From NCBI GenBank assembly GCA_964620905.1, contig CAZUKA010000001.1, positions 455,646 through 519,645 of the forward strand: a DNA stretch of 64,000 nucleotides, read 5' to 3'. The position numbers and the translations under genes are program-made. The stretch comes from an uncultured Gammaproteobacteria bacterium (lineage in GTDB: Bacteria; Patescibacteriota; Patescibacteriia; S139-126). Below, piece by piece: positions 12,972-36,340 of this stretch (position 1 is its first letter; each line of letters opens with the position of its first letter). The notes below the pieces were generated by a model that did no database searches, was not told the DNA's origin, and was given only the letters and a program-made list of their open reading frames with translations.

Positions 12972-13544
12972 ATGATTGCAATTTTTGGTCTGGGTAATCC
13001 AGAAAAAAAATACGAACATACCCGACATAACTTAGGTTGGGATATAATTACTGCTTGGCAACTAAAACACCAAGAATATTTTTCTGATTTTACAAACCAA
13101 GAAAAATTTTCTTCACAAATTGCCCAAGGTACTTGGGGTGATAAAAAAATATTGTTAGTTAGACCTTTAACCTTCATGAATCTATCTGGACAAGCAGTAA
13201 GTAAAATTAAATCATTTTATCAACTTGCCAACAGTGATATTTGGGTGATTCATGATGATCTTGATTTGGGACCGGAAAAAATAAAAATTTCAATCAATGC
13301 CTCGGCCGGTGGGCATAATGGCGTAGCTTCAATTATTGATTCTTTGGGAGATAAAAATTTTGTCAGGTTTAGAGTAGGCATTGGTCGTCCCGGTCTGTTT
13401 GGTAGAATAAGCAATTATGTTTTAAAAAAACCTTCCCCTACTGAACAAAATTCAATCAACCAAGCCAAAGAAAAAATTTTAGCCGCTCTTGATTGTGCAC
13501 TAACCGACAATCTAGCCAAAGCCCAAAATTTATTCAACAACTAA
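12972..13544 (+). CDS. pth: Peptidyl-tRNA hydrolase
   Basis: IFGLGNPEKKYEHTRHNLGW…HDDLDL… motifs; 190 aa. Confidence 0.9.
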   Translation: MIAIFGLGNPEKKYEHTRHNLGWDIITAWQLKHQEYFSDFTNQEKFSSQIAQGTWGDKKILLVRPLTFMNLSGQAVSKIKSFYQLANSDIWVIHDDLDLGPEKIKISINASAGGHNGVASIIDSLGDKNFVRFRVGIGRPGLFGRISNYVLKKPSPTEQNSINQAKEKILAALDCALTDNLAKAQNLFNN

Positions 13545-13545
13545 A

Positions 13546-13569
13546 ACCGCCCTATTGGGCGGTTTTTTA
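13546..13569 (+). terminator. Rho-independent terminator after pth (ccgccc-tatt-gggcgg + TTTTTT)
   Basis: GC stem followed by a U-tract. Confidence 0.75.
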
Positions 13570-13698
13570 GTACTCACTAGGCTCCTAGTCAGTGCAAAGG
13601 TGACTAGAAAAATCTAGAACCCTTGACTTAGGGCTACTTGTCAAAAACAAGGAGGGGTGTTTTTGCTTTCACCACTGCACTAGGAACCTAGTAGGTAC
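13570..13698. repeat. About 130-bp element bounded by imperfect ~30-bp inverted repeats (gtactcactaggctcctagtcagtgcaaaggtg … caccactgcactaggaacctagtaggtac) with internal hairpins. It could be a structured ncRNA or a MITE-like element.
   Basis: The reverse complement of the right arm matches the left arm at about 26 of 30 positions. Internal palindromes ctag-aaaaat-ctag and cttgtcaaaaacaag. It sits between the convergent genes pth and the SIMPL gene. Confidence 0.5.
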
Positions 13699-13799
13699 TA
13701 AACTAACAATGTTTTAGCATTTTAACAAACAAAAAAAATTTGTCAATAAATACCCCAAGCACTAAGCTTGGGGTATAAATAAATTTATTTTGGAATCAA

Positions 13800-14561
13800 C
13801 TACTTCACCTGATAATTAATACTTACTTCCATAATTATTTCTTGACTACCGCCTGGCACAGCCGGGGCAGAACTATTTCCACCTCCACCATAACCACCCA
13901 TATCATTATAAGGCACACCTGGTCCACCTATTGGATTTTCCCACCAACCAATAACTTTGCCCAAACGTACACCTAAACTGCCAGCAATACTTTTGGCTTT
14001 CCCTCTCGCATCAACTATAGCTTTCAGTCTGGCCTCCTGTTTTAAATCTTCCAACTTAGAACTATCAAAACTTACTCCTTGAATCTGATTGACCCCAGCT
14101 TTGGTAGCCGCGTCAATAACTTGGGAAACTAAATCTTTATTGACTGATAAATTTGTTACCTTCACTACCAACAATTGACTGGCATTGTAACCACCGGGCG
14201 TTTGGACATTGTTTATCCAATCATATTGCGGATATAAAGAATAATTTTGAGTTTTGATATTTTCTTTTGCTACTCCCACTCCTTCTACAGCTTTGATCAC
14301 GTTATTTATTTTTTCATTTAATTGAGTCAAAGCTTGGTCAGCCCGGGTGACTTTATCAACCTGAACACCCATAGTGATATTGGCAACATCAGGTTCATAA
14401 CTCACTGTACCACGACCCGAGACACTCACTTGCCAATATTGTTTATTGACTATCCGGTCGCGTAAAATGGCTACAACTACTACCCCGGTCAACAATAAAA
14501 TTCCGACTAAAATAAGTAGATATTTTGGCTCTCGCCAGGTTTGTTTTTTATTCTCTTCCAT
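13800..14561 (-). CDS. SIMPL/DUF541-family secreted or periplasmic protein with a Gly-rich C-terminal tail
   Basis: N-terminal TM/signal, then …SVSGRGTVSYEPDVANITMGVQV…NYSLYPQYDW…LKAIVDARGKAKSIAGSLGVRLGKVIG…, characteristic of BP26/SIMPL proteins. Confidence 0.6.
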   Translation of the reverse strand: MEENKKQTWREPKYLLILVGILLLTGVVVVAILRDRIVNKQYWQVSVSGRGTVSYEPDVANITMGVQVDKVTRADQALTQLNEKINNVIKAVEGVGVAKENIKTQNYSLYPQYDWINNVQTPGGYNASQLLVVKVTNLSVNKDLVSQVIDAATKAGVNQIQGVSFDSSKLEDLKQEARLKAIVDARGKAKSIAGSLGVRLGKVIGWWENPIGGPGVPYNDMGGYGGGGNSSAPAVPGGSQEIIMEVSINYQVK

Positions 14562-14760
14562 ATTTTGTTTGGTTAATAATTAATTGACCATTCTTGTAGA
14601 CACATTATAACACCTTGATATAAAATAGAAAATTATATTTACTAAGGTTGATAAAAATCTCGGCAAGATAAATTTATTAGATTTTATTGTTTGACAGGAT
14701 AACAACAATATGTAAAAATATTCAAATTCGTTATTTAAAAACTATTATTGGAGTTAAGCC

Positions 14761-15465
14761 ATGAAAGAAATAAAAACAATTATTTGTCATTTACCAAAAA
14801 TTCACAAGAAAGTATCCCCCCTGCTACCTTGGGAACAAATGGTAAAAACCAATAGTCAAACTGAATTGATTCATCGTGCTCAAAATGAAAAATTTAACTG
14901 GTTGATAAGTACCGTTGGTGAAAACAACTATTATCATAATTTTACAGTTCTGGAAGCTACCAGATCAATCCCGATAAAAAAAATTCTTTATGCTGAAAAA
15001 AAATATACTCCCAGTCTAAAAAATATTGTTGAAGGCTTCAATGCCTTTATTCTCAATCAATGGGAATTAACAACTCTCAACGGAATGTTAAGCTCTCAAG
15101 CACCTCTAAAAAAAGACGGGAAAATATTAATCTACTTTGAAAACTATTACGAGCAGCTCATGATTTTCAACGAACATCAACATAAAAAAATAGAATTAAA
15201 ATATCCAGAAATAAAAATAAACAATTATCCAGCAAAAGAATTAGGTAGTTTACTAGGTGAAAATCGTTTCAAAATTATTATTGATACTACTACCGCTTCC
15301 TATCCCTGGAGTCTAACTCCAAAATCAACGAGCCCGCTAATAAAAGAATTCAAAAATACCAATTTTACTGAAATACCAATTTTAGTTTGTTTAAAAAACC
15401 AGCTCACTCTAAAAAGAGATATTTTAAAAAATATTATATACTATTCTCAATCAAGCAAAGTGTAA
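14761..15465 (+). CDS. Hypothetical protein (234 aa)
   Basis: Intact ORF immediately upstream of mfd. No recognisable motifs. Confidence 0.5.
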   Translation: MKEIKTIICHLPKIHKKVSPLLPWEQMVKTNSQTELIHRAQNEKFNWLISTVGENNYYHNFTVLEATRSIPIKKILYAEKKYTPSLKNIVEGFNAFILNQWELTTLNGMLSSQAPLKKDGKILIYFENYYEQLMIFNEHQHKKIELKYPEIKINNYPAKELGSLLGENRFKIIIDTTTASYPWSLTPKSTSPLIKEFKNTNFTEIPILVCLKNQLTLKRDILKNIIYYSQSSKV

Positions 15466-15468
15466 ACT

Positions 15469-18400
15469 TTGCTTTTTTATTTTTTTTCCGCTAAGGTAAC
15501 TACACCACTTGCTATGGTTGAAAAAATTATTAAAAAATTATTAGTCAACCAGTCACTCTCTTTAAGTCAACTACCCAATATCACCGCGCGGACTTGGCTG
15601 GTTTGGCAGCTGGCAACCAGTACCCAAATCAAACATTCGGGTGTTTTGTTGTGGGTAGAGGATGATAAGGAACTAATCAGCTCACAACAAAATTTATTAT
15701 TTTGGCAATCTATTTATCCAGCCAATATACCTGTCCTTATCTGGCCAGAACAGGCCAGTGTTATTTTATATAATTTTATCAACCACCTGCCGCAAATTGC
15801 CATTATCTCCATGACCACCTCCTTACAAAACCTACCTGATCTGTGCTGGTGGAAAACAAACCTGATCAAGCTTCATCATCACGAAAATTATCACCCAAAC
15901 AAATTGGTCAAAGAAATTTTTGACTTTGGGTATGAACGACAAAACAAAGTATATGCTACTGGTGAATTTTCTCAACGTGGCGAAATAATTGACATTTGGC
16001 CCATCACCAACCAGTATCCCCAACGAATCATTTGGCAAAATAACAGTATTGCCAGTATTTTTAGTTATGACCTTTGGTCACAAACCAAAATTACTGAACA
16101 AAAAAATCTAACTATCCTACCAAAAAAACTGCCAACTGCTAAAAACGATCTAGCTATCTATCTACCGAAAAATCTTATCAGCTTTCATTCTCAAACAAAC
16201 AAAATAAAATATAAAACTGATTGGCAACTTCTTTGGCAAAATTTTGAAAGTCTAACCAGCGAAAAAATGAACTTCTTTACTCCCCCGCACTGGCAACTTG
16301 ACCAGAAGGAATTATTTAACTGGCTAAAAGATAAAAAAAATTGGCAAATTATAGTCAGTGATTCTCGTTATAATTTTATAAAAGAAAAATTCTCTCAAAT
16401 CAAAGTACAAAACCAACCATTTTTACAAGGATTAATCAATCAAAATCTTAAATTGGCAATTTTAACTGCTCGTGAATTGCCCGTCCAATCAAATAGTAAT
16501 CATTTAAAAAAATTTTCAACTGGAAAAAAAACCTTTGCCCCGGGGGACTATGTGGTCCACATTGATCATGGTATTGGAAAACTAGCAGGTACCATTAAAC
16601 AAAATTTTGATCAAACCACCAAAGAATTTTTTGTTATTCATTATGCGGCCAATGATAAACTTTACGTACCAGTCGAAAAAACTGATCGTTTGGAAAAATA
16701 TATTGGTTTAACCAGACCAACCTTACATCGCCTATCCGGCAACAGTTGGCAACAACTTAAACAAAAAATAAAATATGATCTTATTCAATCAGCAGAAAAA
16801 ATCATTTACCATCAGGCTCAAAGAGAAGTTGCACTCGTGGCACCTTTTCAACAATCATTTACCGAAGAAAAATCTTTAGCCAATGATTTTCCTTTTACCG
16901 AAACTGCTGACCAAGCCCGCGTGTTGTCTGAAGTTTGGTCTGATTTAAAACAAGACAAACCTATGGATCGCCTAATTTGTGGCGATGTTGGTTTTGGTAA
17001 AACTGAAATTGCTCTGCGCGCTGCTTTCAAAATTATTCTACATGGCCAACAAGTCGCCTTACTTTGCCCAACCACTATTTTAGCCCAACAGCATTTTGAC
17101 TCTTTTACCCAACGATTAGCAAAATATGGCGTCAATATTTGTTTGCTGACCAGATTTCAAGACAAAAATGAACAAACGACGGCACTAGCTAAACTAGCTC
17201 GAGGCGATTGTGATTTGGTTATTGGTACTCATCGCCTACTATCTGATGATGTCAATTTTAAAAAATTAGGGTTATTGATAATTGACGAGGAACAAAAATT
17301 TGGTGTCAATCACAAAGAAAAAATAAAAAAGCACCGCGCTCATACTCATTTACTTACTTTATCAGCAACGCCGATTCCCCGCACACTATATTTTTCCGTA
17401 GCCGGATTAAAGCCCATCAGCCTCATCCAAACTCCCCCAATTGGTAGACAACCAATTATCAGTTCCATTGAACCTTATGATGAAATCAAAATTAAACAGG
17501 CAATTGCACAAGAACTATCCAGACAAGGACAAGTATATTACCTGTTCAATAACATCTCCACTATGCCCCTGAAAGTTCAACAACTACAACGACTTATACC
17601 TGCGGCCAGACTAGCCTATGCTCATGGCCAAATGACCGGCAAAGAATTGAGTCAAACTATGCACCAGTTTGACAATCAACAAATAGACGTTCTGGTTTGT
17701 TCAACAATTATTGAAAATGGTTTAGATCTTGCCAATGTTAATACTTTAATAGTTGAACAAGCAGCCAACTTTGGTTTGGCTCAACTCTATCAGCTAAGAG
17801 GCCGGGTAGGAAGAGGTATCAGACAAGCTTATGCCTACTTTTTTTATTCTTCACAAAAATTAAATGGTTTAGCAGCCAAAAGATTGCAAGCTTTGGAAGC
17901 AGCTTATGAATTGGGTAGTGGTTTAGAACTAGCCCGACGTGATATGGAAATTAGAGGTATTGGTAACCTACTTGGCCACAAGCAGCATGGTCATATTAAA
18001 GCCGTAGGTTTAAATTTATATCTGCGACTGTTAGAACAAGCAATCAGCGAACTACAAAATGGGCAATCTCATTACCAGGAAGATGATGTTCACATTCAAT
18101 TACCCCTAACTTATCATATTGATGAACAGCTGATGCCAGCTCTAGAACAAAGATTTGATTGCTATCAACATCTAGCTCAATGCCAAACCGTAACCGAATT
18201 AGAACAGCTGGTAGAAAAAAATTGGGGGACAAAAGAACTACCAACCCCAACTGCTAATTTAATTTTGATTTTAAAACTAAAAATCATTGCTCGAACAAAA
18301 AGTATCAAAGCTATTGAAGCAAATCCCAGTAGAAACGGCGAACAAAAAATTACTATCTTTTTCCAACAGCCGCTAACCGAAAGTGTTATTGAAAAATTTA

Positions 18401-25841: not shown

Positions 25842-25928
25842 GCCGCGGTGGTGGAATTGGTAGACACGCAGGTCTCAAAAACCTGTGGGCGCAAGCTCAT
25901 GAGAGTTCGATTCTCTCCCGCGGCACCA
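25842..25928 (+). tRNA. tRNA-Leu (anticodon CAA), type II with a long variable arm
   Basis: GCCGCGGTGGTGGAATTGGTAGACACGCAGGTCTCAAAAACCTGT-GGGCGCAAGCTCAT-GAGAGTTCGATTCTCTCCCGCGGCACCA. Anticodon loop CTCAAAA. A TTGACA-17-TATTTTAAT promoter-like sequence lies at 25772-25803. Confidence 0.85.
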
Positions 25929-26045
25929 TTAATTAATATTAAGTATTTAATACTGGTATAAAGGTATATTAAAACTATCTTGAATAATTAATATAAATAA
26001 GATATAATCTGTAAGCGTATCTTGAAATTATTTATTAATAATCGA

Positions 26046-26121
26046 CGCGGGGTAGAGCAGTTGGCAGCTCGCCAGGCCCATAACCTGGAGGTCGCTGGTT
26101 CGAGTCCAGCCCCCGCTACCA
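26046..26121 (+). tRNA. tRNA-Met (anticodon CAU), initiator-like with a C1:U72 mismatch, resembling E. coli tRNA-fMet (CGCGGGG…CCCCCGC)
   Basis: CGCGGGGTAGAGCAGTTGGCAGCTCGCCAGGCCCATAACCTGGAGGTCGCTGGTTCGAGTCCAGCCCCCGCTACCA. Confidence 0.8.
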
Positions 26122-26212
26122 AATTAGAATTAAGTATTAAGCTTTAATAAAAAATACTTTTATTTAATTTTGATACTTTATACTTAATACCATATACTTA
26201 ATATTACTTTGG

Positions 26213-26289
26213 GGCAGGGTAGCTCAGTTGGTTAGAGCGAGGGAATCATAACCCCTAGGTCGGCGGTTCAACTCCGCCCCCTGTCACCA
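26213..26289 (+). tRNA. Second CAU-anticodon tRNA: elongator Met, or Ile2 if C34 is lysidinylated
   Basis: GGCAGGGTAGCTCAGTTGGTTAGAGCGAGGGAATCATAACCCCTAGGTCGGCGGTTCAACTCCGCCCCCTGTCACCA. The acceptor stem is fully paired with one G·U. Confidence 0.75.
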
Positions 26290-28135: not shown

Positions 28136-28395
28136 AAATTTTTTTTAATAATTAGCTAATTGCCCTAGGGGCAAATATTTTCCTCGAGTCTAATATAACA
28201 AAAAAAGAAAAATAAGTAAAATTATAAAATTGATCTATAATTTCTACCTACCGGCAGGCAGGGCTTCTTCTGAAATCCTCAATCAAGAGACCCTGAATCA
28301 AGTTCAGGGTGACAAAAGTTTAAAAATTATAAAATTAGAGTTTATTTAAAAATTATAAAATTACAAAATTAAATATTGATTTATTATTTACAATT

Positions 28396-28415
28396 CCTGC
28401 CTGCCGGCAGGCAGG
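28396..28415. repeat. Perfect 20-bp GC-rich palindrome CCTGCCTGCC|GGCAGGCAGG followed by TAAAATTTAcAATT. A second copy lies at 36246-36259 and a partial copy (cctaccggcaggcagg) at 28247-28262.
   Basis: Seen directly. It is unusual GC content within AT-rich intergenic DNA. Confidence 0.7.
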
Positions 28416-28450
28416 CAGGTAAAATTTACAATTATTCTATCTCCTAAATC

Positions 28451-29068
28451 CTACTCCACCAATTCCGCTTTCACCACCAACCGATGGGAAGTTGAATAAA
28501 GTGGAGTACATGAAAAAATAGTCAAAGTTGGTTGTTCAGTCGGTTTCAGTATATCCACGCGATCAGGAGTTATTACTTCAATCTCTATCACTCGATAAGT
28601 ATAGTCCTGATCCAACCAACGAACATATATTTCATCACCCACCTCCATTTTATCTATCTCCCAAAAAGTCCTAGGATCCGGTGGTTCATACAGCCAGCGG
28701 TGCGCTGACAAAACTGTATTTGAACCTTTGTCAGGCGTGGAAGTACGGGGTAGATGCCATACACCACGGTTGAGCATCTCGGCTCCACCTTCATAAATTG
28801 CACTATCAACTCCCATTTTTGGTATTACAATCCAGCTGCCTTCACGACTAGCAGACGAAGAAATATAAGCATCTTGATAATCTTTGACTACTTGTTCTTC
28901 ACCTGATGGCAATACTTCAAACTGACCAAAATTACTTCCCGTTCCCTGCCAAATCTGTCCACGCCAAATAACCACCAATCCGACAAAAATCAAAATTATT
29001 CCTAACCATCGCCACCATATGACGTATTTGCCCATTTGTTGTCTAATTTTTTTTAACCATTTTTTCAT
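28451..29068 (-). CDS. Sortase (transpeptidase)
   Basis: N-terminal TM anchor; conserved His (VLSAHR), a TLxTC-like motif (TLTIFSCTP) and Arg (SHRLVVKA). Confidence 0.8.
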   Translation of the reverse strand: MKKWLKKIRQQMGKYVIWWRWLGIILIFVGLVVIWRGQIWQGTGSNFGQFEVLPSGEEQVVKDYQDAYISSSASREGSWIVIPKMGVDSAIYEGGAEMLNRGVWHLPRTSTPDKGSNTVLSAHRWLYEPPDPRTFWEIDKMEVGDEIYVRWLDQDYTYRVIEIEVITPDRVDILKPTEQPTLTIFSCTPLYSTSHRLVVKAELVE

Positions 29069-29180
29069 AGTATATAAATAGTAAAATAATATAACATTTT
29101 TTACAAATAAATTTTTATTTTATAATTTTATAATTTTTAAATAAATTTTAATTTTTAAATTATTCCGACCTTCCGCTTCC

Positions 29181-29327
29181 TGAAGTGCAAATATTGCCAA
29201 TAAGCGAGTGGGATTTGCCTCTCAACTAGCGAAGCGCTTTTGAGAGGCACACGAGCGTTTGGTAATTTTGCCTGAACGTAAGCGCTGGTCGGCAATTTTT
29301 GCTACTTTTTGTTGTCAAAAAGTAGAA
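29181..29327. repeat. Copy A of a ~148-nt repeated structured element, ~85% identical to copy B at 36036..36184. The shared sequence is tgaagtg…attgccaataagcgagNgg…gcctctcaactagcgaagcg…ttttgagaggcac…cgagcg…ttggYaattttgcctgaac…gctactttttgttgtcaaaaagtagaaa.
   Basis: Nested stems: attgccaa/ttggYaat, gcctctcaa/ttgagaggc, and ctacttttt/aaaaagtag. The last hairpin carries a compensatory t/a insertion in copy B. It sits in the 5' intergenic region of the sortase gene. Confidence 0.65.
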
Positions 29328-29402
29328 ATAAAATTACTTTAAAACAAAAACTCCCAATTTAATTTAGGAATTTTTGGCTAAAACTAAACAAAAAATCTAG
29401 TA

Positions 29403-30533
29403 TTAATCATGATTAACCCGCTTGCGTAAAAAGCTCAACAAAACAATTATCACTAAATATACCCCCAATGCCCAAAGATAATAATAAGAAATATTTTTTC
29501 CACTTTCAATAATATTTCGACTAGGATTATAACCCAACCATGACAAAATTTTACCACCTGTAGTTGGTAATTCATCATAACCCTGATCAGGAGTTTCAAA
29601 TCCTAAAATAGCGGGGACTTCTTCATCAGGCAATTCTGGAGTTTCAAATCCCCTTACCTGCACGATAGTAAAAGGAAAATCATCTTCTGCAAAATAACCA
29701 TTATCTTGTCGTCCATTGACACTTACTTCAACGTGATTGATAAATTCACCGACTACCCCAACCGGCACATTCATGTCATAAGCGATAATCCTCACTTCAT
29801 TGGGCTGCAGGCTGCCCAAATTCCAAACCTGCGTAGATAAGCCATTATTTACAAAAGTAAACCCAGTTGGCAAAGTATCAGTCACCACTACATTTTCTGC
29901 CACTGCACTACCGGTATTACTGATGGTGAGTAAATAATAACCCGTCAGACCTGGCACTACTGAACTGTCACCTGACTTTTGAATATTTATAATTGGTTGC
30001 GGTGTAGAACCACTACCGCCTCCGCCACCGCCAGATCCCCCACCACCTCCAGATGAACCACCAACAAAACCAACCAGCAAATCAAAATAAGTAGAAAGTT
30101 TTTGATAATCATTGCCAATCACCGAAGGAAAACGAACTGTAAAATCATATCGTTCAGTGCTCCCACCTGCTTGACTGGAAAGCACTACTTCGCCATCTGC
30201 AAAAAAACCAGCCAATGAATTTTGGTATAAAAGCGTAGCTCCTTGTCTTACTTCAAACTGCAAAACATCTGCCAAACAAAACGGGTCAGCACTACAATCA
30301 TAAGTATTTAAAGCTTGCACTCCAACTGTTTGCATACTACCTGTAAAATTGGTCACTTTGACCCAGCGCGTGGTGGCATCGCCAGGTTTAGTGTCAAGAT
30401 CCAAAAACAAAGGTGAACTTTGAAATTCAACATTTATATTTTGCGCCTTTATATCTTTGGCACCAAACAAAAAAGACATTACCAAAAACAGACTGACAAA
30501 AAATATATTTCTAATTGTATTTTTGTATTTCAT
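29403..30533 (-). CDS. Cell-wall-anchored protein with a signal peptide, a TasA-like N-terminal domain, a Gly-rich linker, a DUF11/CARDB-like domain and a C-terminal LPTTGG sorting signal. The start is set at MKYKNT, 10 codons inside the ORF-track start.
   Basis: MKYKNTIRNIFFVSLFLVMSFLFGAKDIKAQ signal. …LDLDTKPGDATTRWVKVTNFTG… resembles the L-PGD core of TasA/camelysin. DUF11-like LTISNTGSAVAENVVVTDTLPTGFTFV. …YDELPTTGG followed by a TM segment and a basic tail. Confidence 0.65.
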   Translation of the reverse strand: MKYKNTIRNIFFVSLFLVMSFLFGAKDIKAQNINVEFQSSPLFLDLDTKPGDATTRWVKVTNFTGSMQTVGVQALNTYDCSADPFCLADVLQFEVRQGATLLYQNSLAGFFADGEVVLSSQAGGSTERYDFTVRFPSVIGNDYQKLSTYFDLLVGFVGGSSGGGGGSGGGGGGSGSTPQPIINIQKSGDSSVVPGLTGYYLLTISNTGSAVAENVVVTDTLPTGFTFVNNGLSTQVWNLGSLQPNEVRIIAYDMNVPVGVVGEFINHVEVSVNGRQDNGYFAEDDFPFTIVQVRGFETPELPDEEVPAILGFETPDQGYDELPTTGGKILSWLGYNPSRNIIESGKNISYYYLWALGVYLVIIVLLSFLRKRVNHD

Positions 30534-30537
30534 AATA

Positions 30538-31491
30538 TTAATCATCACAATGTCCAGGACCAATTAGACCATTATTATAATCATCCAACAGTTCAGCCAA
30601 AGTATTAAACTGTTGTTTAACTGGATTATTTCCCGCCAGAGCCCCGATATCAGCTGGGGTATATTGTCCAAATAAATCAGCCGCGCTAGTAATTGCTGTT
30701 TGCACTTCAGTTGGTACACTAGCTCCATTTAATTGATTTAAAACCGCCGCAATATACTGGTGAGCTAAGCTAAAATATGAATTTCCTCCAGCTGGCGGGG
30801 TATTGATTACATCATAATATGTCAGTTCACTTAAATAAAATATAGTATCTTCACCAAGCAAAGTCCAAGTGTCATCATGCGGCGCTGGACCATACTTTGA
30901 ATGTGTTTTCCAATAACCTTGAGTCAAAGTGCAACTTTCGCCTTCTTCTTGCCATTCTCCTGAATTGATAGTAAGTTGTACAATCGTTTGATCTGTATAT
31001 CCGCCACTTTGAGAATCATTTATTTCTTCTTGCCAACCTTGGAAAGCCATATTAAACTGACAAGTTTGAGTTTGCAAAGTTTCATCATTGGTAGTCATAA
31101 TCGCTGACAAATCATAATCCCCACTACCACCAGCCAGCAAACTATTGTCAGACCAAGTCGCATTATCCTGAATCGGACCGTCATAAAGCAAAGTTGCACC
31201 CCGATATATTTTTAAATTCAATGCTGGACACAAAACACCAGTGGTGTTTTGCAGGGTGGTATTATATTTTATTTTCAACTGACCGTTGTTAGCAACCACC
31301 ACATTTGCTGTCGCTGTTTGTGTATCAGATACTGTAGGTGCAAAATCTACCCGATTGGCATCAATATAAAGTGTAGCCATGAGCCAATAGTTATCCGGTG
31401 AAATTTCTTCATCAGAAAAAAATGATGCTGTCAGACCAATTTGTGAAATCATAAACATAACTACCAACATAGCCAAACCCAACACAGTCAT
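30538..31491 (-). CDS. TasA/camelysin-like secreted protein with a SipW-cognate-type signal peptide. The start is moved to the internal Met (MTVLGLAML…); the 87-codon upstream extension in the ORF track is rejected.
   Basis: MTVLGLAMLVVMFMISQIGLTASFFSDEEISPDNYW… carries the TxAxFSDxExS motif typical of SipW substrates. The upstream extension is highly basic, lacks a signal-peptide logic and overlaps sipW. Confidence 0.65.
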   Translation of the reverse strand: MTVLGLAMLVVMFMISQIGLTASFFSDEEISPDNYWLMATLYIDANRVDFAPTVSDTQTATANVVVANNGQLKIKYNTTLQNTTGVLCPALNLKIYRGATLLYDGPIQDNATWSDNSLLAGGSGDYDLSAIMTTNDETLQTQTCQFNMAFQGWQEEINDSQSGGYTDQTIVQLTINSGEWQEEGESCTLTQGYWKTHSKYGPAPHDDTWTLLGEDTIFYLSELTYYDVINTPPAGGNSYFSLAHQYIAAVLNQLNGASVPTEVQTAITSAADLFGQYTPADIGALAGNNPVKQQFNTLAELLDDYNNGLIGPGHCDD

Positions 31492-31748
31492 TTTTTTCTG
31501 CCCTATATAATACGCTTGATAAAGCCGTCCGTAACAGTTGGCTATAAAAATTTTTGGTTTTCTAGTTTTTTTCCGCCAATATAAATTAAAATAACCCAAC
31601 TGACTTTGTATCTGTTTGATAGTTTTTTTCCGCTGACGTTTATACCACCGACTAAAAACTTTAAACTGACGAATATAAAAACGACTAAACAACCGCTGAC
31701 AGCGAATAATTTTTTTCTTATACTGGTTTATTTTTTTATACCAATATT

Positions 31749-32300
31749 TCATTCTTTATCTTTAGCTTGATTTTTTTTGTGTTTTAATTCTCGCCAAATA
31801 TTCATAACCTCATCATAGATTATAAACAGCGCCGGTAGTACTATAATGATAAAAAATCCCAAGGGCTGTTTGGCTGCCGCTACCGCGTAACCAACATAAG
31901 GAATATCAAATAAAACTTTACCCAATATCCGGCTACTAAAAACCGCTTCTCCATCCGGAGCATTGTTGGCATCACCTTTAGTGGTGTAACTTGGGCGATT
32001 ATTTACAATTTCCTTTTCCACAATCCGGTGCGTAGTTGGTATGTTCTCGCCGCGATTAGCAAAAGTAATTATATCTCCCTCCTGATAAGTATCAGCTTTC
32101 CTAATCACCACCACCGCGCCAGTATGAATCGTGGGTTCCATAGAACCAGACTGCACCACATAGACTTGAAAATTACCTGGAATAGGAAAACGTGTTCCTA
32201 CCAACAGTAAAGCGACGCCCAAAATAGCTCCGATCACTACATAATATATAATTTTGAAAAATACTTCAGTTGTTTTTTTTGTTTTTTGCTTTTCGTTCAT
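31749..32300 (-). CDS. sipW: SipW-like signal peptidase I, archaeal/ER type (S26B)
   Basis: …GSMEPTIHTGAVVVIRK…GDIITF…HRIVEK…TKGDANNAPD… This shows the Ser/His-type motifs and the TKGDNN box of SipW-type peptidases. It is distinct from the P-type lepB at 9150..9749. Confidence 0.75.
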   Translation of the reverse strand: MNEKQKTKKTTEVFFKIIYYVVIGAILGVALLLVGTRFPIPGNFQVYVVQSGSMEPTIHTGAVVVIRKADTYQEGDIITFANRGENIPTTHRIVEKEIVNNRPSYTTKGDANNAPDGEAVFSSRILGKVLFDIPYVGYAVAAAKQPLGFFIIIVLPALFIIYDEVMNIWRELKHKKNQAKDKE

Positions 32301-32313
32301 AAACAGTCAATAA

Positions 32314-33696
32314 TTATTCACCTGCAAACAAACTCTGACAAGTAAACTGGTTGTTATTACGCACTTGGGTAGCATAGAAAATCACATCAGTCACCAAAGA
32401 ATCTGTCTGGGTGATATTGTTCATACTAATCGGATCACAAACAAAATCTCCTGTTTGATTATCAACTGTCAAAGTGCCAGCACACCAGGTAAAACCGATA
32501 TATTCGGTGGAAGTGGCAGTCAAAATATAATCATTTTGACTGTCAGCATAAGCCAGTCCGTTGCCATTGATAAATATGTTTTCATAAGTATTTGGGCCGG
32601 CTAAAGTTTGTTCATTTAACGGATTATACAAACCATCACCATCATCCCGCCAAGCAAACACATTTAGATATTGTGATAGCTCACCGTCGCCCAAACCTAG
32701 ATCATTACAAGTATTATCAACAACTGATTCTGGTTCAGTGCAACCATTTTCAAAATCTTTATCATTTTCTGTGTACATACAGGTATAAGCATCATTGTCA
32801 TAAACATGCATACTAATCACGTGCTTGCCCATATCCCCGGGTTTTACATCTTCAAACTGAAAAAATTTCTGGGTAGTAAGATCTGCTTCACTCCATAGTT
32901 CACATACACTGCCGTTTATTTCATAAGTACAATTTATCGGGTGCACACTGACATTGTCCAAAAACACACCTAAAGAATTATTTGTTCCTCCGCCTTCAAA
33001 TTCTATCTTAGTTGAGGCGTTACTGGCGGTAAATTCCTTGGTATATTCAGTCCAAACAATACTACCTCCTCCACCTACCGGACCAATAGTTTCCACTAGA
33101 TTACCGTCAATATTGACATACATAATATTCTCACCATCGCCGGTATTTGGCCGCGGCGCGAAATAATAATGCAGTTTATACTTTTGACCCGGAGTAGTTG
33201 GAATAAATTGATGAATCTTAACCAAAGCCGGTTCACCATTTAATGGATTGTCAGGACCAAACCAGTCTGAATCAAGTTCAGCATATTGATCACCGTCTTG
33301 GGCACTGCCCAATACGCCTTCATGATATTCTACAAGTGAGGGATCTGGCCGGTTTTGACCATTGTAGGTTGTTTCCGAACCAGCCCATTCTACTGTCCAT
33401 TCCAATCCTGTAGTGCCATTGGGGAAAATCTGCCACTGGGCATTGTGGGTCACTTCTGGCACTTCAAAACTACCATTTAATATCAAATTGTTAGTAGTGT
33501 CTTCTACACAATCCTCTTCACATTCCTCCCCGTTATAAACAATTGATTTGTGATCTATTTTCAAATCAATCGCACCGGCAGTAAAGGTATTGCCAGTGGA
33601 GGTTTCGGTGTCGCTGAAAAAGGCAGTGGTACCGCCGATGACAACCGCCGCACTAATGGCAATTGCCAACATACTAAATAAAATCTTTTTGCGCAT
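32314..33696 (-). CDS. TasA/camelysin-like secreted protein with a SipW-cognate signal peptide, plus a ~170-aa domain shared with the vWA giant protein
   Basis: MRKKILFSMLAIAISAAVVIGGTTAFFSDTETSTGNTFTAGAIDLKID…FFQFEDVKPGDMG… A central domain NGSFEVPEV…QYAELDSDWFGP…LGVFLDNVSV is homologous to residues in 39904..43320. Confidence 0.75.
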   Translation of the reverse strand: MRKKILFSMLAIAISAAVVIGGTTAFFSDTETSTGNTFTAGAIDLKIDHKSIVYNGEECEEDCVEDTTNNLILNGSFEVPEVTHNAQWQIFPNGTTGLEWTVEWAGSETTYNGQNRPDPSLVEYHEGVLGSAQDGDQYAELDSDWFGPDNPLNGEPALVKIHQFIPTTPGQKYKLHYYFAPRPNTGDGENIMYVNIDGNLVETIGPVGGGGSIVWTEYTKEFTASNASTKIEFEGGGTNNSLGVFLDNVSVHPINCTYEINGSVCELWSEADLTTQKFFQFEDVKPGDMGKHVISMHVYDNDAYTCMYTENDKDFENGCTEPESVVDNTCNDLGLGDGELSQYLNVFAWRDDGDGLYNPLNEQTLAGPNTYENIFINGNGLAYADSQNDYILTATSTEYIGFTWCAGTLTVDNQTGDFVCDPISMNNITQTDSLVTDVIFYATQVRNNNQFTCQSLFAGE

Positions 33697-33732
33697 AGTT
33701 TTAGGTTTAATATTTATAATTAAATTTATGTG

Positions 33733-33758
33733 AGTAATTTATTACGTAATAAATTACT
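33733..33758. promoter_or_regulatory. Perfect 26-bp palindrome AGTAATTTATTAC|GTAATAAATTACT, 37 bp upstream of the TasA-like gene start (33696). Candidate operator.
   Basis: Exact inverted repeat with 13-bp arms and no spacer, read from the sequence. Confidence 0.55.
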
Positions 33759-33951
33759 TATTTAATTTTTAAAATTTATCCAAATCTACCAACTTATATT
33801 CAAAAATCACCAACTCAAACCTGTGCCCCCAAACCAAATAAGTAAATTATTTTACTCATTTGGCATAGGGGCAAAGCCCTTATGCCCAATCTTATGAGAT
33901 AACTCACTAGATTTGTTTTATACTTAATTTAAGTATTTTAAAGTAATTTAA

Positions 33952-35313
33952 TTAGTCACGTACCTGAACTTGAAAAGCAGGGCGTGAACCAGCGGTAGTA
34001 GCAGGTGTCCAATTAAACTCAACCATACCAGTTAATATAAAACCACCTGAAAGATCTTCCGAAGAAATAACTAAATATTTTGCATCAGTATTGTCAGTAT
34101 CAATTAAAACGTCCGGATTAAGCGCGTTTCCGTCTAACTTCAAATTAGTTAATTCAACGCTATCTCCAGCACCTGACGATACCTTACCTGCAATAATATT
34201 AAGATCAGCAGTATTAGTTACTGGTCCTACTACATAACTTGCAGTATTTCCATTAACAGTAAAGCTGGCAGTATTTCCATCATAATTTACTGTAAATGGA
34301 ACTGGTGTTCCGGAAGTCATGACATTATTTGTATGATTCATTGTTCCAGAATTTTGTGTATTTGTACCTACACCTACCTCCCAATCACCAGTCATAGTAT
34401 TACTACCGAAACGACCTTCTGATTGCCATTTTAATACTCCGGGACCATTCCATCCATCAAAAGGACCTTCAGCATTAATAACAACCTCATTCAAACTATC
34501 ACAAGTAAATCCAGCATTGTTTCTGGATTGAACTGCATAGAATGAAACATCAGCTTTAATACCATCAGTTTGAGAAACATTGGTTACTGGCTGACCATTA
34601 CAGGTAAACCCTGTACCACGTCCACTCAATGGACCATTCTCACCTGTCTTACCAAATGTATCTTGTGGAACAGCATCAAATCCCAACTCACCATAACACC
34701 AGTACTTGGCAATATAATAAGTTTGTGCGCCGGTTAATGGGGCGATATTTTGCGCAAGCCATACATTTTTTTCTGAATCAGATAAAGTCCAATACTTACC
34801 ATCAAATAAATCCTTAGCCAAACCTTCCTTAAATATAACTTCACCTTCTTCATAAACATTATCACCATCATCAGCCCAGAAAGCAAAATACAATTCATTT
34901 TGTAATTCACCTTCATTTTCACCAGCTGTTAAATCTTCCTTAGCTTCTGGCTCTGTTTGACCATTTTCTAGAGTGGCAGTTAAATTAATATTCATACAAG
35001 CCCAAGCATCATTATTATTGACATGAAGTGAGATTGTATCTTCACCACGATCGCCAGGTTTTAAATCAAGGAAATTGAAAAAAAGCTGATTAGTCAAATC
35101 GCTTAATCCCCAAGAAGTTCCATTGTTATAAACCAGTACACCATCTTCATTGGTGACATAGCTCTCATTGTCAATGGTCAAATCAATCGCACCGGCAGTA
35201 AAGGTGTTGCCAGTGGATGTTTCGGTGTCGCTGAAGAAAGCAGTAGTACCACCGATAATGACGGCAGCGGCTGCAGCGATTGCCACCAAACTAAATAAAA
35301 TTTTCTTTTTCAT
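33952..35313 (-). CDS. TasA/camelysin-like secreted protein with a SipW-cognate signal peptide. Paralog of 32314..33696.
   Basis: MKKKILFSLVAIAAAAAVIIGGTTAFFSDTETSTGNTFTAGAIDLTID…LFFNFLDLKPGDRGEDTISLHV… The N-terminal 45 aa are nearly identical to the paralog. Confidence 0.75.
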   Translation of the reverse strand: MKKKILFSLVAIAAAAAVIIGGTTAFFSDTETSTGNTFTAGAIDLTIDNESYVTNEDGVLVYNNGTSWGLSDLTNQLFFNFLDLKPGDRGEDTISLHVNNNDAWACMNINLTATLENGQTEPEAKEDLTAGENEGELQNELYFAFWADDGDNVYEEGEVIFKEGLAKDLFDGKYWTLSDSEKNVWLAQNIAPLTGAQTYYIAKYWCYGELGFDAVPQDTFGKTGENGPLSGRGTGFTCNGQPVTNVSQTDGIKADVSFYAVQSRNNAGFTCDSLNEVVINAEGPFDGWNGPGVLKWQSEGRFGSNTMTGDWEVGVGTNTQNSGTMNHTNNVMTSGTPVPFTVNYDGNTASFTVNGNTASYVVGPVTNTADLNIIAGKVSSGAGDSVELTNLKLDGNALNPDVLIDTDNTDAKYLVISSEDLSGGFILTGMVEFNWTPATTAGSRPAFQVQVRD

Positions 35314-35850
35314 AATTATGTATTACTTAATAATTAGAAATTGAAACATATACGCCTGCCAAATAATTATTTTTTTCGACCTTTTTCTCCTCCAATATTT
35401 TAAACAGGCAACTTATGTTTTAATTTATAAATTTACTTACTCTTTGAGTAAGAAAAGAAAAGCAAATGTTCCATTTCTGAAAACATTTACTCTTCTCCCC
35501 TTGCTCAAAAAATTTTTAAACAAAAAAACCCACGCGCCAACGTGAGAATTAGGACTTACTTAAAAACAACTGATTGTTCCAGCAAGCGACTTGGTTCAAT
35601 TTTAAGTGAAACTTTATGCTCATAGGGCAGGATTTATTAATTAATCCCCTCCTTCCCTAGTCTTTTTAACTTGTTATATCTTACGCAAGTATCAATATGC
35701 TGTCAAATACAAATTATGTGTTCAGGTTCTTGTATTTTTTTACCTAATTTTAAACAAAAAAATCATTTTAATTTATATTTAAATTTTTGCTAAATTCTTT
35801 CCAAAAATAAAACTGTAAAAAATTTGTTAAAAAAGCATATTTTCTGCACT

Positions 35851-35859
35851 TTATCCACA
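35851..35859 (+). promoter_or_regulatory. Consensus DnaA-box 9-mer TTATCCACA inside a ~22-bp motif (cTTTATCCACAAatcAGAATATTTT). The same motif recurs at 43481-43489 upstream of the vWA giant gene.
   Basis: Exact 9-mer match to the DnaA-box consensus. The flanks are conserved between the two copies. Confidence 0.4.
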
Positions 35860-36035
35860 AATCAGAATATTTTACTAATATTAGGGAAGATATTAATAAT
35901 GAAACGGCCGTTTACTTTGGGAACAGTTAAAAGTTTATCCTGCTAAATAAGCGGGGCAGGAATGACAAAGATTTAAGAAGTAAGATTTAAGAATAAATAA
36001 ATAGTTAATTATTATTTAATCGGCCATTTACTTTG

Positions 36036-36184
36036 TGAAGTGAAAAATTGCCAATAAGCGAGCGGAATTTGCCTCTCAACTAGCGAAGCGATTTTGAGAG
36101 GCACGCGAGCGGTTGGCAATTTTGCCTGAACCAAAGTACTGGCCGTAGTTTTTTGCTACTTTTTTGCTAACAAAAAAGTAGAAA
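36036..36184. repeat. Copy B of the ~148-nt repeated structured element (see 29181..29327). A degenerate partial third copy lies at about 35897-35960.
   Basis: Aligned by eye to copy A, with about 85% identity and conserved stems. Confidence 0.65.
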
Positions 36185-36202
36185 GAATAAATACTCTTTA
36201 TT

Positions 36203-36262
36203 TCTACCTGCCTGCTCCTCGAGTCTGAGCCTCGGAGTCGAAGACCGGCAGGCAGGTAAAAT
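36203..36262. repeat. GC-rich palindromic stem element ttctacctgcctgc-[tcctcgagtctgagcctcggagtcgaaga]-ccggcaggcaggtaaaatttataatt, the second copy of the CCGGCAGGCAGG+TAAAATTTA motif
   Basis: cctgcctgc / gcaggcagg inverted arms enclose a 29-nt loop containing direct repeats of CGAGTC. Confidence 0.6.
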
Positions 36263-36277
36263 TTATAATTTAAAATT

Positions 36278-36311
36278 AAAAAAACTTCCGCTGAGTCAAC
36301 GGAAGTTTTTC
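36278..36311 (-). terminator. Bidirectional intrinsic terminator (cttccg-ctgagtcaa-cggaag, flanked by an A-run and a T-run) downstream of 36341..37060
   Basis: Hairpin with a U-tract on both strands. Confidence 0.7.
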
Positions 36312-36340
36312 ACTATATCCTTAATCCTAACTCCTATATC

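Follow-up and report, generated by a model that had tools for sequence, protein, structure and literature searches.

An undescribed family of hairpin elements dispersed between the genes of a narrow Patescibacteria-like lineage

The described systems closest to the element reported here are small intergenic repeats of bacteria. ERIC/IRU sequences (~127 bp) and RU-type small repeats (PMC2229807, PMC3184786, PMC2759123) are the nearest in size. CREE, the Correia elements, have terminal inverted repeats of 26 nt, duplicate a TA target, contain an IHF site, can supply promoters, and as RNA are bound or cut by RNase III (PMC2649163). REP and REPIN sequences with RAYT transposases are hairpin-forming intergenic repeats whose fold is maintained (PMC3733652). 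We found an element resembling these in a 64,000-nt stretch of DNA (the window; contig CAZUKA010000001.1 of assembly GCA_964620905.1, positions 455,646 to 519,645 of the forward strand), which comes from an uncultured bacterium of the Candidate Phyla Radiation (CPR)/Patescibacteria. It belongs to an undescribed family of ~175 bases, made of one long hairpin and a small one and dispersed between genes: an imperfect rod-like hairpin of ~125 nt comes first, after it a U-rich linker, then a short A/U hairpin (CUACUUUUUU...AAAAAAGUAG) and last a conserved tail (AAAUAAAAUU). Literature searches gave no earlier description of the element. CPR bacteria have tiny genomes, and to our knowledge hardly anything has been learned of the non-coding RNAs or repeats that they carry.

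Like ERIC/IRU, the element is an imperfect palindrome of similar size that forms a long hairpin, is intergenic and multi-copy, can be present or absent at orthologous sites, and keeps its hairpin despite sequence change. Unlike ERIC/IRU, to which it has no sequence similarity, it is an asymmetric unit (rod, second A/U hairpin and tail) with two long-lived subtypes, it appears to lie behind the predicted terminators of its neighbors and not inside operon transcripts, and it is found in a CPR bacterium whose genome measures about 1 Mb. It shares with CREE and the other neisserial intergenic mosaic elements (~100-160 bp) the clustering of structured repeats with small repeats in mosaic spacers, a frequent location near surface-protein genes, and differences between strains, but the terminal repeats, TA duplication and IHF site of CREE were not seen here. 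The maintained fold also recalls REP/REPIN, and small REP-like GC palindromes (CTAC-CCTGCC..GGCAGG) lie beside and inside the rod element. However, the rod is 125 nt long, AT-rich and not a doublet of short palindromes, its arms are not palindromic, and its foot has no conserved GTAG/CGTC tag (only in copy B of the window and in copies D1-D3 from relatives does GTAG come after the rod). No RAYT or Y1_Tnp gene was found in the window. Its size, intergenic copies, polymorphic sites and compensated hairpin place the element among repeats of the ERIC/CREE-like kind, without making it a member of a homologous family.

The window contains two full copies, A and B, and one remnant (Table 1). Copies A and B are 84-87% identical in alignment, in line with the first-pass annotation of this DNA, which had reported two ~85% identical copies of a ~148-nt element with three nested hairpins. 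The element is indeed there, but that extent is about 15 nt short at the 5' end and misses two outer helices. One of these, CGGCCA/UGGCCG in copy B, is CCGACC/GGUCGG in copy A (a compensated change), the other is UACUUUG/CAAAGUA, and together they close the whole element into a single ~125-nt rod, interrupted by nothing larger than a 5-nt bulge and loops of 2x2 or 3x2. All three of the hairpin stems exist, and attgccaa/ttggYaat encloses gcctctcaa/ttgagaggc within the rod, but the third stem, CTACTTTTT/AAAAAGTAG (ctacttttt/aaaaagtag), forms a separate 3' hairpin outside the other two. Two finer details of the annotation hold, namely a G.U-compatible change in its outer stem (a G.U at ttggTaat in copy A) and a paired T/A insertion in the 3' hairpin. 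Across the family the module is ~175-205 nt long and non-coding, and on the + strand of copy B there is no open reading frame (ORF) of at least 20 amino acids inside the element. The ends of the unit are asymmetric (TTCGGCC on the left, AAATAAAATT on the right) and are not inverted repeats.

Table 1. Coordinates, within the window, of the two copies, the remnant and neighboring features. MFE, minimum free energy.
Feature	Position	Strand	Remarks
Copy A, subtype II	29160..29336	+	Covariance model R1, 198.8 bits, E 3.6e-46
Copy A, rod hairpin	29165-29292	+	Followed by U-rich linker
Copy A, 3' A/U hairpin	29302-29325	+	Followed by conserved tail AAAUAAAAUU
Copy B, subtype I	36015..36192	+	Covariance model R1, 214.6 bits
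Copy B, rod hairpin	36021-36145	+	Followed by linker
Copy B, 3' A/U hairpin	36157-36181	+	Followed by conserved tail
Degenerate 5'-arm remnant	35902..35963	+	Counterpart of 36018-36068 in copy B
Promoter-like site TTAAGA-17-TATTAT	35987..36015	+	9/12, putative; ends 5 nt before rod of copy B
GC-rich palindromic module CTACCTGCCTGC...GCAGGCAGGTA	36198..36264		MFE -33.6 kcal/mol, z -5.7
Predicted bidirectional intrinsic terminator	36279..36311		-12.6 kcal/mol on +, then UUUUU
Predicted terminator of DUF11/LPXTG-like gene	29344..29376	-	Between that gene and copy A
Sortase gene (PF04203)	28451-29068	-	Neighbor of copy A
Peptidase_M73 gene (camelysin/TasA family)	33952-35313	-	Neighbor of copy B

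Folding of the + strand gave an MFE of -68.0 kcal/mol for copy A (z -6.0) and -68.7 kcal/mol for copy B (z -7.5), and in each case none of 200 shuffled sequences was as stable; the minus-strand values are -58.7 and -63.9 kcal/mol, respectively. A 23-mer core (TTTGCCTCTCAACTAGCGAAGCG) occurs exactly twice in the window, compared to 0.00 occurrences expected by chance and none in shuffles. The degenerate third copy that had been suspected near copy B is real, with a local alignment score of 49 compared to 22 +/- 3.7 for shuffles (maximum 38), but it consists only of the 5' arm. A remnant of this arm is also present at the orthologous place in the related locus L009.

The fold is under selection, as compensatory changes attest. 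Covariation statistics were computed on an alignment of nine full copies from the window and its relatives, in which 96.3% of cells fall in standard pairs, compared to 35-44% when the partners are slid by 1-3 columns. Eleven pairs have changed on both sides (28 cells), and the observed covariation score was reached by none of 500 column shuffles. Much of the covariation divides two subtypes, I (TCGGCCATTTRCTTTGTGAAGTG) and II (CCGACCTTCCGCTKCCTGAAGTG), both of which are present in the window, in L009 and also in locus L006, and there are independent changes within subtypes, for example at columns 16/133, 19/130, 50/100 and 59/96. The changes track pairing, not codons. What the first-pass annotation had read from two copies, that pairing is kept and not sequence, thus extends to a nine-copy family with compensatory changes in relatives, which is no chance duplicate. 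Two irregular motifs in the rod are invariant, UGAAGUG opposite GCCUGAA and GC-GA-GCG opposite CGC-GA-GC, and each can form tandem G.A pairs.

Three properties of the rod differ between its strands. Read on the window's + strand, its wobble cells comprise five G.U and no A.C; on the minus strand all five become C.A mismatches, the conserved GA/GA loops become UC/UC, and copies A and B fold 5-9 kcal/mol worse. This makes it suggestive that the + strand is the strand of the selected fold, and only suggestive because the wobble count amounts to about four independent events. The converse reading is that the element would act in gene-sense, minus-strand RNA, as an intercistronic or 3'-end hairpin that stabilizes, processes or terminates upstream transcripts in the manner of REP and ERIC. 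It would fit with the location of all nine copies downstream of the 3' end of a gene transcribed toward the element, and with the ability of the minus strand to form a rod as well (z -6.6 and -8.4 for the two copies of the window). We nevertheless think it improbable, given the strand differences just listed, albeit with only four sites informative for orientation, and given the dedicated predicted terminators that, at A and B and at C1 and E1 (two copies from relatives), separate the element from the gene upstream.

The family is real and multi-copy and, as far as the data reach, is confined to a narrow, CPR/Patescibacteria-like lineage. A covariance model built from three sequences was run on loci fetched via neighboring proteins, and the total is nine full copies (133-215 bits), two contig-end fragments and one degenerate 5'-arm remnant, the nine full copies being spread over three or four closely related CPR genomes. 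L009, which has the same gene order as the window and a signal peptidase 89% identical, contains four copies, compared to two in the window. By exact-word scans, one per large collection, we found a third variant, which sits among other genes. The two contigs that carry it, L002 and L006, are nearly identical to each other, and the covariance model found a second copy in L006. Another relative, L016, identified through htrA, has one copy. The two fragments (L010 6676-6734 and L019 2594-2635) lie exactly at the ends of short-read contigs, and breakage of contigs inside the element is what is expected of a multi-copy repeat that breaks assemblies. The closest named protein homologs are from Parcubacteria/Portnoybacteria (51-59% identity). 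Contig L002 (CAZINS010000016.1), which carries copy C1, was binned as 'uncultured Gammaproteobacteria'; it is probably mis-binned, because its genes and composition match the CPR-like loci. Kinship among the sampled genomes is partly known–L016 is possibly from the same assembly as the window (unconfirmed), and the L009 organism may be close to the L006 organism–so the 94% identity between the non-orthologous copies D4 and C2 is not readable as deep conservation.

Searches further afield were negative. In the more distant relatives L011, L014, L018, L020 and L021 (84 kb, searched with speed filters off) nothing scored above 16 bits. At the gathering thresholds of Rfam 15 only four tRNAs in the window pass and the elements match no family; in E-value mode the best score over the elements is 15.3 bits to IS605-orfB-II (threshold 88, E 5.9). 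BLASTN searches of phage and plasmid collections gave no match, and three scans of viral contigs gave unrelated GC-rich phage hairpins or nothing. We attribute to chance a 20-24-nt match without the rest of the element in L001, a Flavobacteriales metagenome-assembled genome, as well as the two matches other than L006 in the word scan of the metagenome collection, which lie in coding-like GC-rich DNA.

Copies vary in number, site and orientation between close relatives, and they exchange sequence. L009 has two extra copies, one of them inverted, and at the site of copy A, where the flanks are orthologous, the window has subtype II and L009 has subtype I. In the spacer between htrA and an HTH gene, L006, L016 and L019 have the element, and L014 and L018 lack it. 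Copy E1 is a hybrid with features of both subtypes. Copy B is 93% identical to its L009 ortholog D1. Over the block 35953-36340, which runs from the promoter-like site to the end of the terminator, the window and L009 share 95-100% identity, compared to 27-66% for other spacers and to 66-88% agreement at the third positions of identical codons. Small GC palindromes have inserted into the linker in C2 and into the loop of the 3' hairpin in E1, and in D3 another small hairpin has replaced the 3' hairpin. The spacers are mosaics of the rod module, CCTGCC..GGCAGG palindromes and 'attactaat' runs. Filled and empty sites could not be aligned, their flanks being too diverged and too AT-rich.

The main rival to a functional RNA is a non-autonomous mobile or recombining DNA repeat, comparable to MITEs (miniature transposable elements with inverted repeats), ERIC or Correia elements. 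Its hairpin would serve its own propagation or be tolerated, for instance as single-stranded DNA in folded form or as a cruciform that is recognized by a transposase or recombinase whose gene lies elsewhere in the genome, and any effects as RNA would be incidental. A repeat of this type would account for differences in copy number and sites between close relatives, for the truncated remnant, the hybrid copy and the subtype swap, for the insertion of other repeat modules inside the element, for the breaks in assemblies, for the setting in mosaic spacers with GC palindromes and 'attactaat' repeats, and for the lack of a consistent promoter or terminator. We consider it possible but on the unlikely side. 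Taken as a whole, the unit is not symmetric and lacks terminal inverted repeats. We saw no target-site duplication beyond chance, the longest words shared between flanks (4-9 nt) being no longer than in shuffled AT-rich flanks, and the 40 ORFs of the window include no transposase, integrase, reverse transcriptase or Nop-domain protein. One folded strand, and not double-stranded ends, would be indicated by the G.U bias and by the asymmetric G.A motifs that never vary. Transposases of folded DNA usually act on the lagging-strand template, which, judging by GC skew, the + strand would not be.

The two copies in the window are located in intergenic spacers of a surface-protein island, which encodes two camelysin/TasA-like proteins, a SipW-like signal peptidase, a DUF11 protein with an LPXTG-like motif, and a sortase. 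The first-pass annotation had correctly named the minus-strand sortase and TasA-like genes as neighbors, and from the position of both copies upstream of these genes in the minus sense it had proposed a shared cis-regulatory leader. In that proposal the element would be part of a 5' untranslated region, or a promoter-carrying module, common to the two genes, and a minus-strand promoter-like site (TTCACA-17-AATAAT) does overlap the 5' edge of copy B. The proposal is not supported, and we regard it as the least probable of the explanations weighed here. On the + strand, which the strand evidence favors, both copies are antisense to the genes of the island. The distance to the downstream start codon varies, copy A being 92 nt and copy B about 700 nt away, whereas the orthologous site in L009 has 293 nt. 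Other copies adjoin unrelated genes, in both orientations: htrA with an HTH_17 gene, a tRNA gene, and a gene with an LTD domain. The subtype swap and the presence or absence of copies speak against a leader too. The best promoter-like site for the TasA-like gene (TTGACA-17-TAAGAT, 35706..35678 on the minus strand) is 300 nt nearer to the gene than copy B, and only B and D1 have a good outward promoter-like site.

Predicted terminators point in the same direction, since the elements appear to lie between a neighbor's terminator and the next gene, outside the predicted transcription units of their neighbors, which counts against a 5' leader as well as against a 3'-UTR (untranslated region) stabilizer. 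Promoter-like sites of the downstream genes come after the elements. The candidate terminator at 29376..29344 has a 13-bp stem followed by UUUUUGUUUU (-13.3 kcal/mol with z -3.75 on the minus strand, -6.6 on the + strand), and upstream-gene terminators likewise precede the element at C1 and E1. For A, B, C1 and E1, bidirectional terminators are predicted at a distance of 25-330 nt downstream; the one beyond copy B ends a 239-amino-acid minus-strand gene and could also end a + strand transcript of copy B. An RNA from the + strand would need its own promoter. The promoter-like arrangement upstream of copy B recurs in D1 and E1, with sites 5-7 nt before the rod, and the remaining copies score 6-7 compared to a background mean of 5.7.

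We therefore favor a self-contained structured RNA or repeat module as more likely than a control leader of surface-protein genes. Specifically, and with a confidence that we would call even, we propose a dispersed, recombining structured module that is probably transcribed from the + strand and acts as an RNA rod, not as a gene leader. The selected fold would act in a single strand, the window's + strand, and most simply as RNA. Its promoter would be in the AT-rich DNA just upstream of the element, and the transcript would end at or before the bidirectional terminator of the convergent gene. The RNA would be a stable, largely double-stranded rod that acts by binding a protein or as a substrate of an RNase III-type enzyme, and not by pairing with mRNA; we expect this because the irregular helix motifs are conserved, the loops are not, and no convincing target complementarity was found in the window. 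The modules would spread and homogenize by duplication and recombination among mosaic intergenic regions.

A small RNA family, which the first-pass annotation had also raised, may be considered a live reading on these sequence grounds. Multi-copy small RNAs of bacteria include Qrr, LhrC and the two 6S RNAs of Bacillus. The element resembles them in length (~170-200 nt), paralogous copies, stand-alone intergenic position and covarying structure, but it lacks a conserved seed, a canonical terminator and a 6S-type bubble, and its loci shift between close relatives.

Several observations weigh against the RNA rod that we favor. The most variable parts of the element are the apical loop and the 5-nt bulge, leaving no conserved single-stranded seed, and the best target complementarity in the window is 12-13 nt (E at least 0.13), which is noise. 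The 9/12 promoter-like site is present in only three of the nine copies, representing two independent sites, with a background of 7.6%. The 3' hairpin has no U-tract and so is not a canonical terminator on either strand, and the G.U asymmetry has a P value of about 0.1. Presence/absence, truncation, hybrids and insertions are equally typical of a selfish repeat, and a family limited to very close relatives leaves long-term conservation unproven.

A bolder version of the RNA reading, which we think unlikely, is that this is a multi-copy structural RNA of CPR bacteria with two paralog classes, whose tandem G.A motifs would dock a dedicated protein to form a new small ribonucleoprotein, or else a double-stranded RNA substrate that would couple convergent transcription to control of the surface island. 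In either case, its spread among the spacers of the island would help to swap surface-protein cassettes. The hint of swapping is that the TasA-like gene beside copy B is 52% identical between strains whereas its flanks are 93-100% identical.

Other identities were considered and rejected. The element is not a classical MITE, as the conserved unit continues past the palindromic rod through linker, hairpin and tail and has no terminal inverted repeats. It is not a trans-acting small RNA with an accessible seed (its loops are the most variable parts and matches in the window are not above chance), nor 6S RNA (there is no large central bubble and no match to RF00013, and its loci vary). A riboswitch or cis-acting 5' leader is at odds with neighbors as different as sortase, TasA-like, LTD, htrA/HTH and tRNA genes, with no fixed distance or strand. 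Integron attC sites (R''/R' RYYYAAC...GTTRRRY) do not fit the ends CGGCCA/UGGCCG or CCGACC/GGUCGG, and there is no integrase in the window. For K-turn, hammerhead and signal recognition particle RNA the loop geometry is unfit and there are no Rfam matches. The template or variable repeat of a diversity-generating retroelement is excluded by differences that are not adenine-specific and by the intergenic position of the copies, and a retron by the lack of a reverse transcriptase in the window. TIGR-Tas systems, which the C/D-like UGA...CUGA had suggested, have a tandem array, a Tas gene with a Nop domain, dual variable spacers of 8-12 nt and box C/D motifs (PMC12045711); here single copies are kilobases apart, and there is no array, no variable spacer pair and, in the window, no Nop-domain protein. 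The HTH_17 gene was rejected as a partner of C1 and E1, because L014 and L018 keep this gene without the element and the window has no homolog of it.

The spacers contain further repeats. The GC-rich module directly 3' of copy B belongs to a second repeat family, CCTGCC(N)GGCAGG, some members of which follow CTAC (REP-like). In the window this family is found only in spacers of the surface-protein island (28240-28420 and 36198-36264), and elsewhere we found its palindromes in L006 (7700-7725 and 4215-4236) and L016 (11735-11755). The word CCGGCAGGCAGG occurs five times, only at 28251-28419 and 36245, where 0.03 occurrences are expected. A third small hairpin repeat, ending in GGAATGACA (for example GGATTCCTGACTAAATCAGGAATGACA), is present at L016 11560-11690, L014 9250-9320, L006 7395-7425 and L009 14095-14125, and AT-rich 'aattactaat' runs accompany it in mosaic spacers. 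The more distant relative L011 has no rod element; its corresponding spacers (13040-13190 and 13312-16263) contain a ~30-nt repeat in tandem (CCCTGAACCACGGAGGGTACAGGGTAAA...) as well as three short GIY-YIG ORFs.

Some genes of the region are also of note. The product of the TasA/camelysin-like gene beside copy B was compared with that of L009 7007-8356 to obtain the identity given above; the gene's neighbors are 88-99.6% identical to L009 and its upstream spacer 93%, which looks as if, between conserved flanks, a surface protein had either been replaced as a cassette or undergone diversifying selection. Upstream of this gene, the first of the TasA-like genes, is a long candidate leader (35314-35720, minus strand) with a terminator-like hairpin plus U7 at 35546..35529 and a further hairpin at about 35439-35521. 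This region, of which 160 nt (35354-35513) are 100% identical to L009 despite the divergence of the gene, may be an attenuator or leader RNA, and in Rfam it gave only sub-threshold matches (Yfr19, 37 bits compared to a threshold of 70). At 150-1021 of the window, three tandem 261-nt repeats, 60-96% identical, lie in an apparent very large ORF that runs out of the window start. A tRNA cluster (25842-26289; Leu-CAA, Met-CAT, Met-CAT) adjoins parA/parB and the island, and in L006 a convergent tRNA gene lies immediately next to copy C2.

The family is a structured element supported by covariation and traceable by a covariance model, and it accounts for assembly breaks in these genomes. As the evidence stands, it does not touch on any open question of long standing. 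The spacers that it marks belong to a sortase/TasA-type surface-protein island, and this island is not the same in close strains. If expressed, the element would be a new class of RNA for an uncultivated lineage. If it is not, it would be the first ERIC/Correia-like repeat system described in such bacteria, and a marker of recombination at surface loci.

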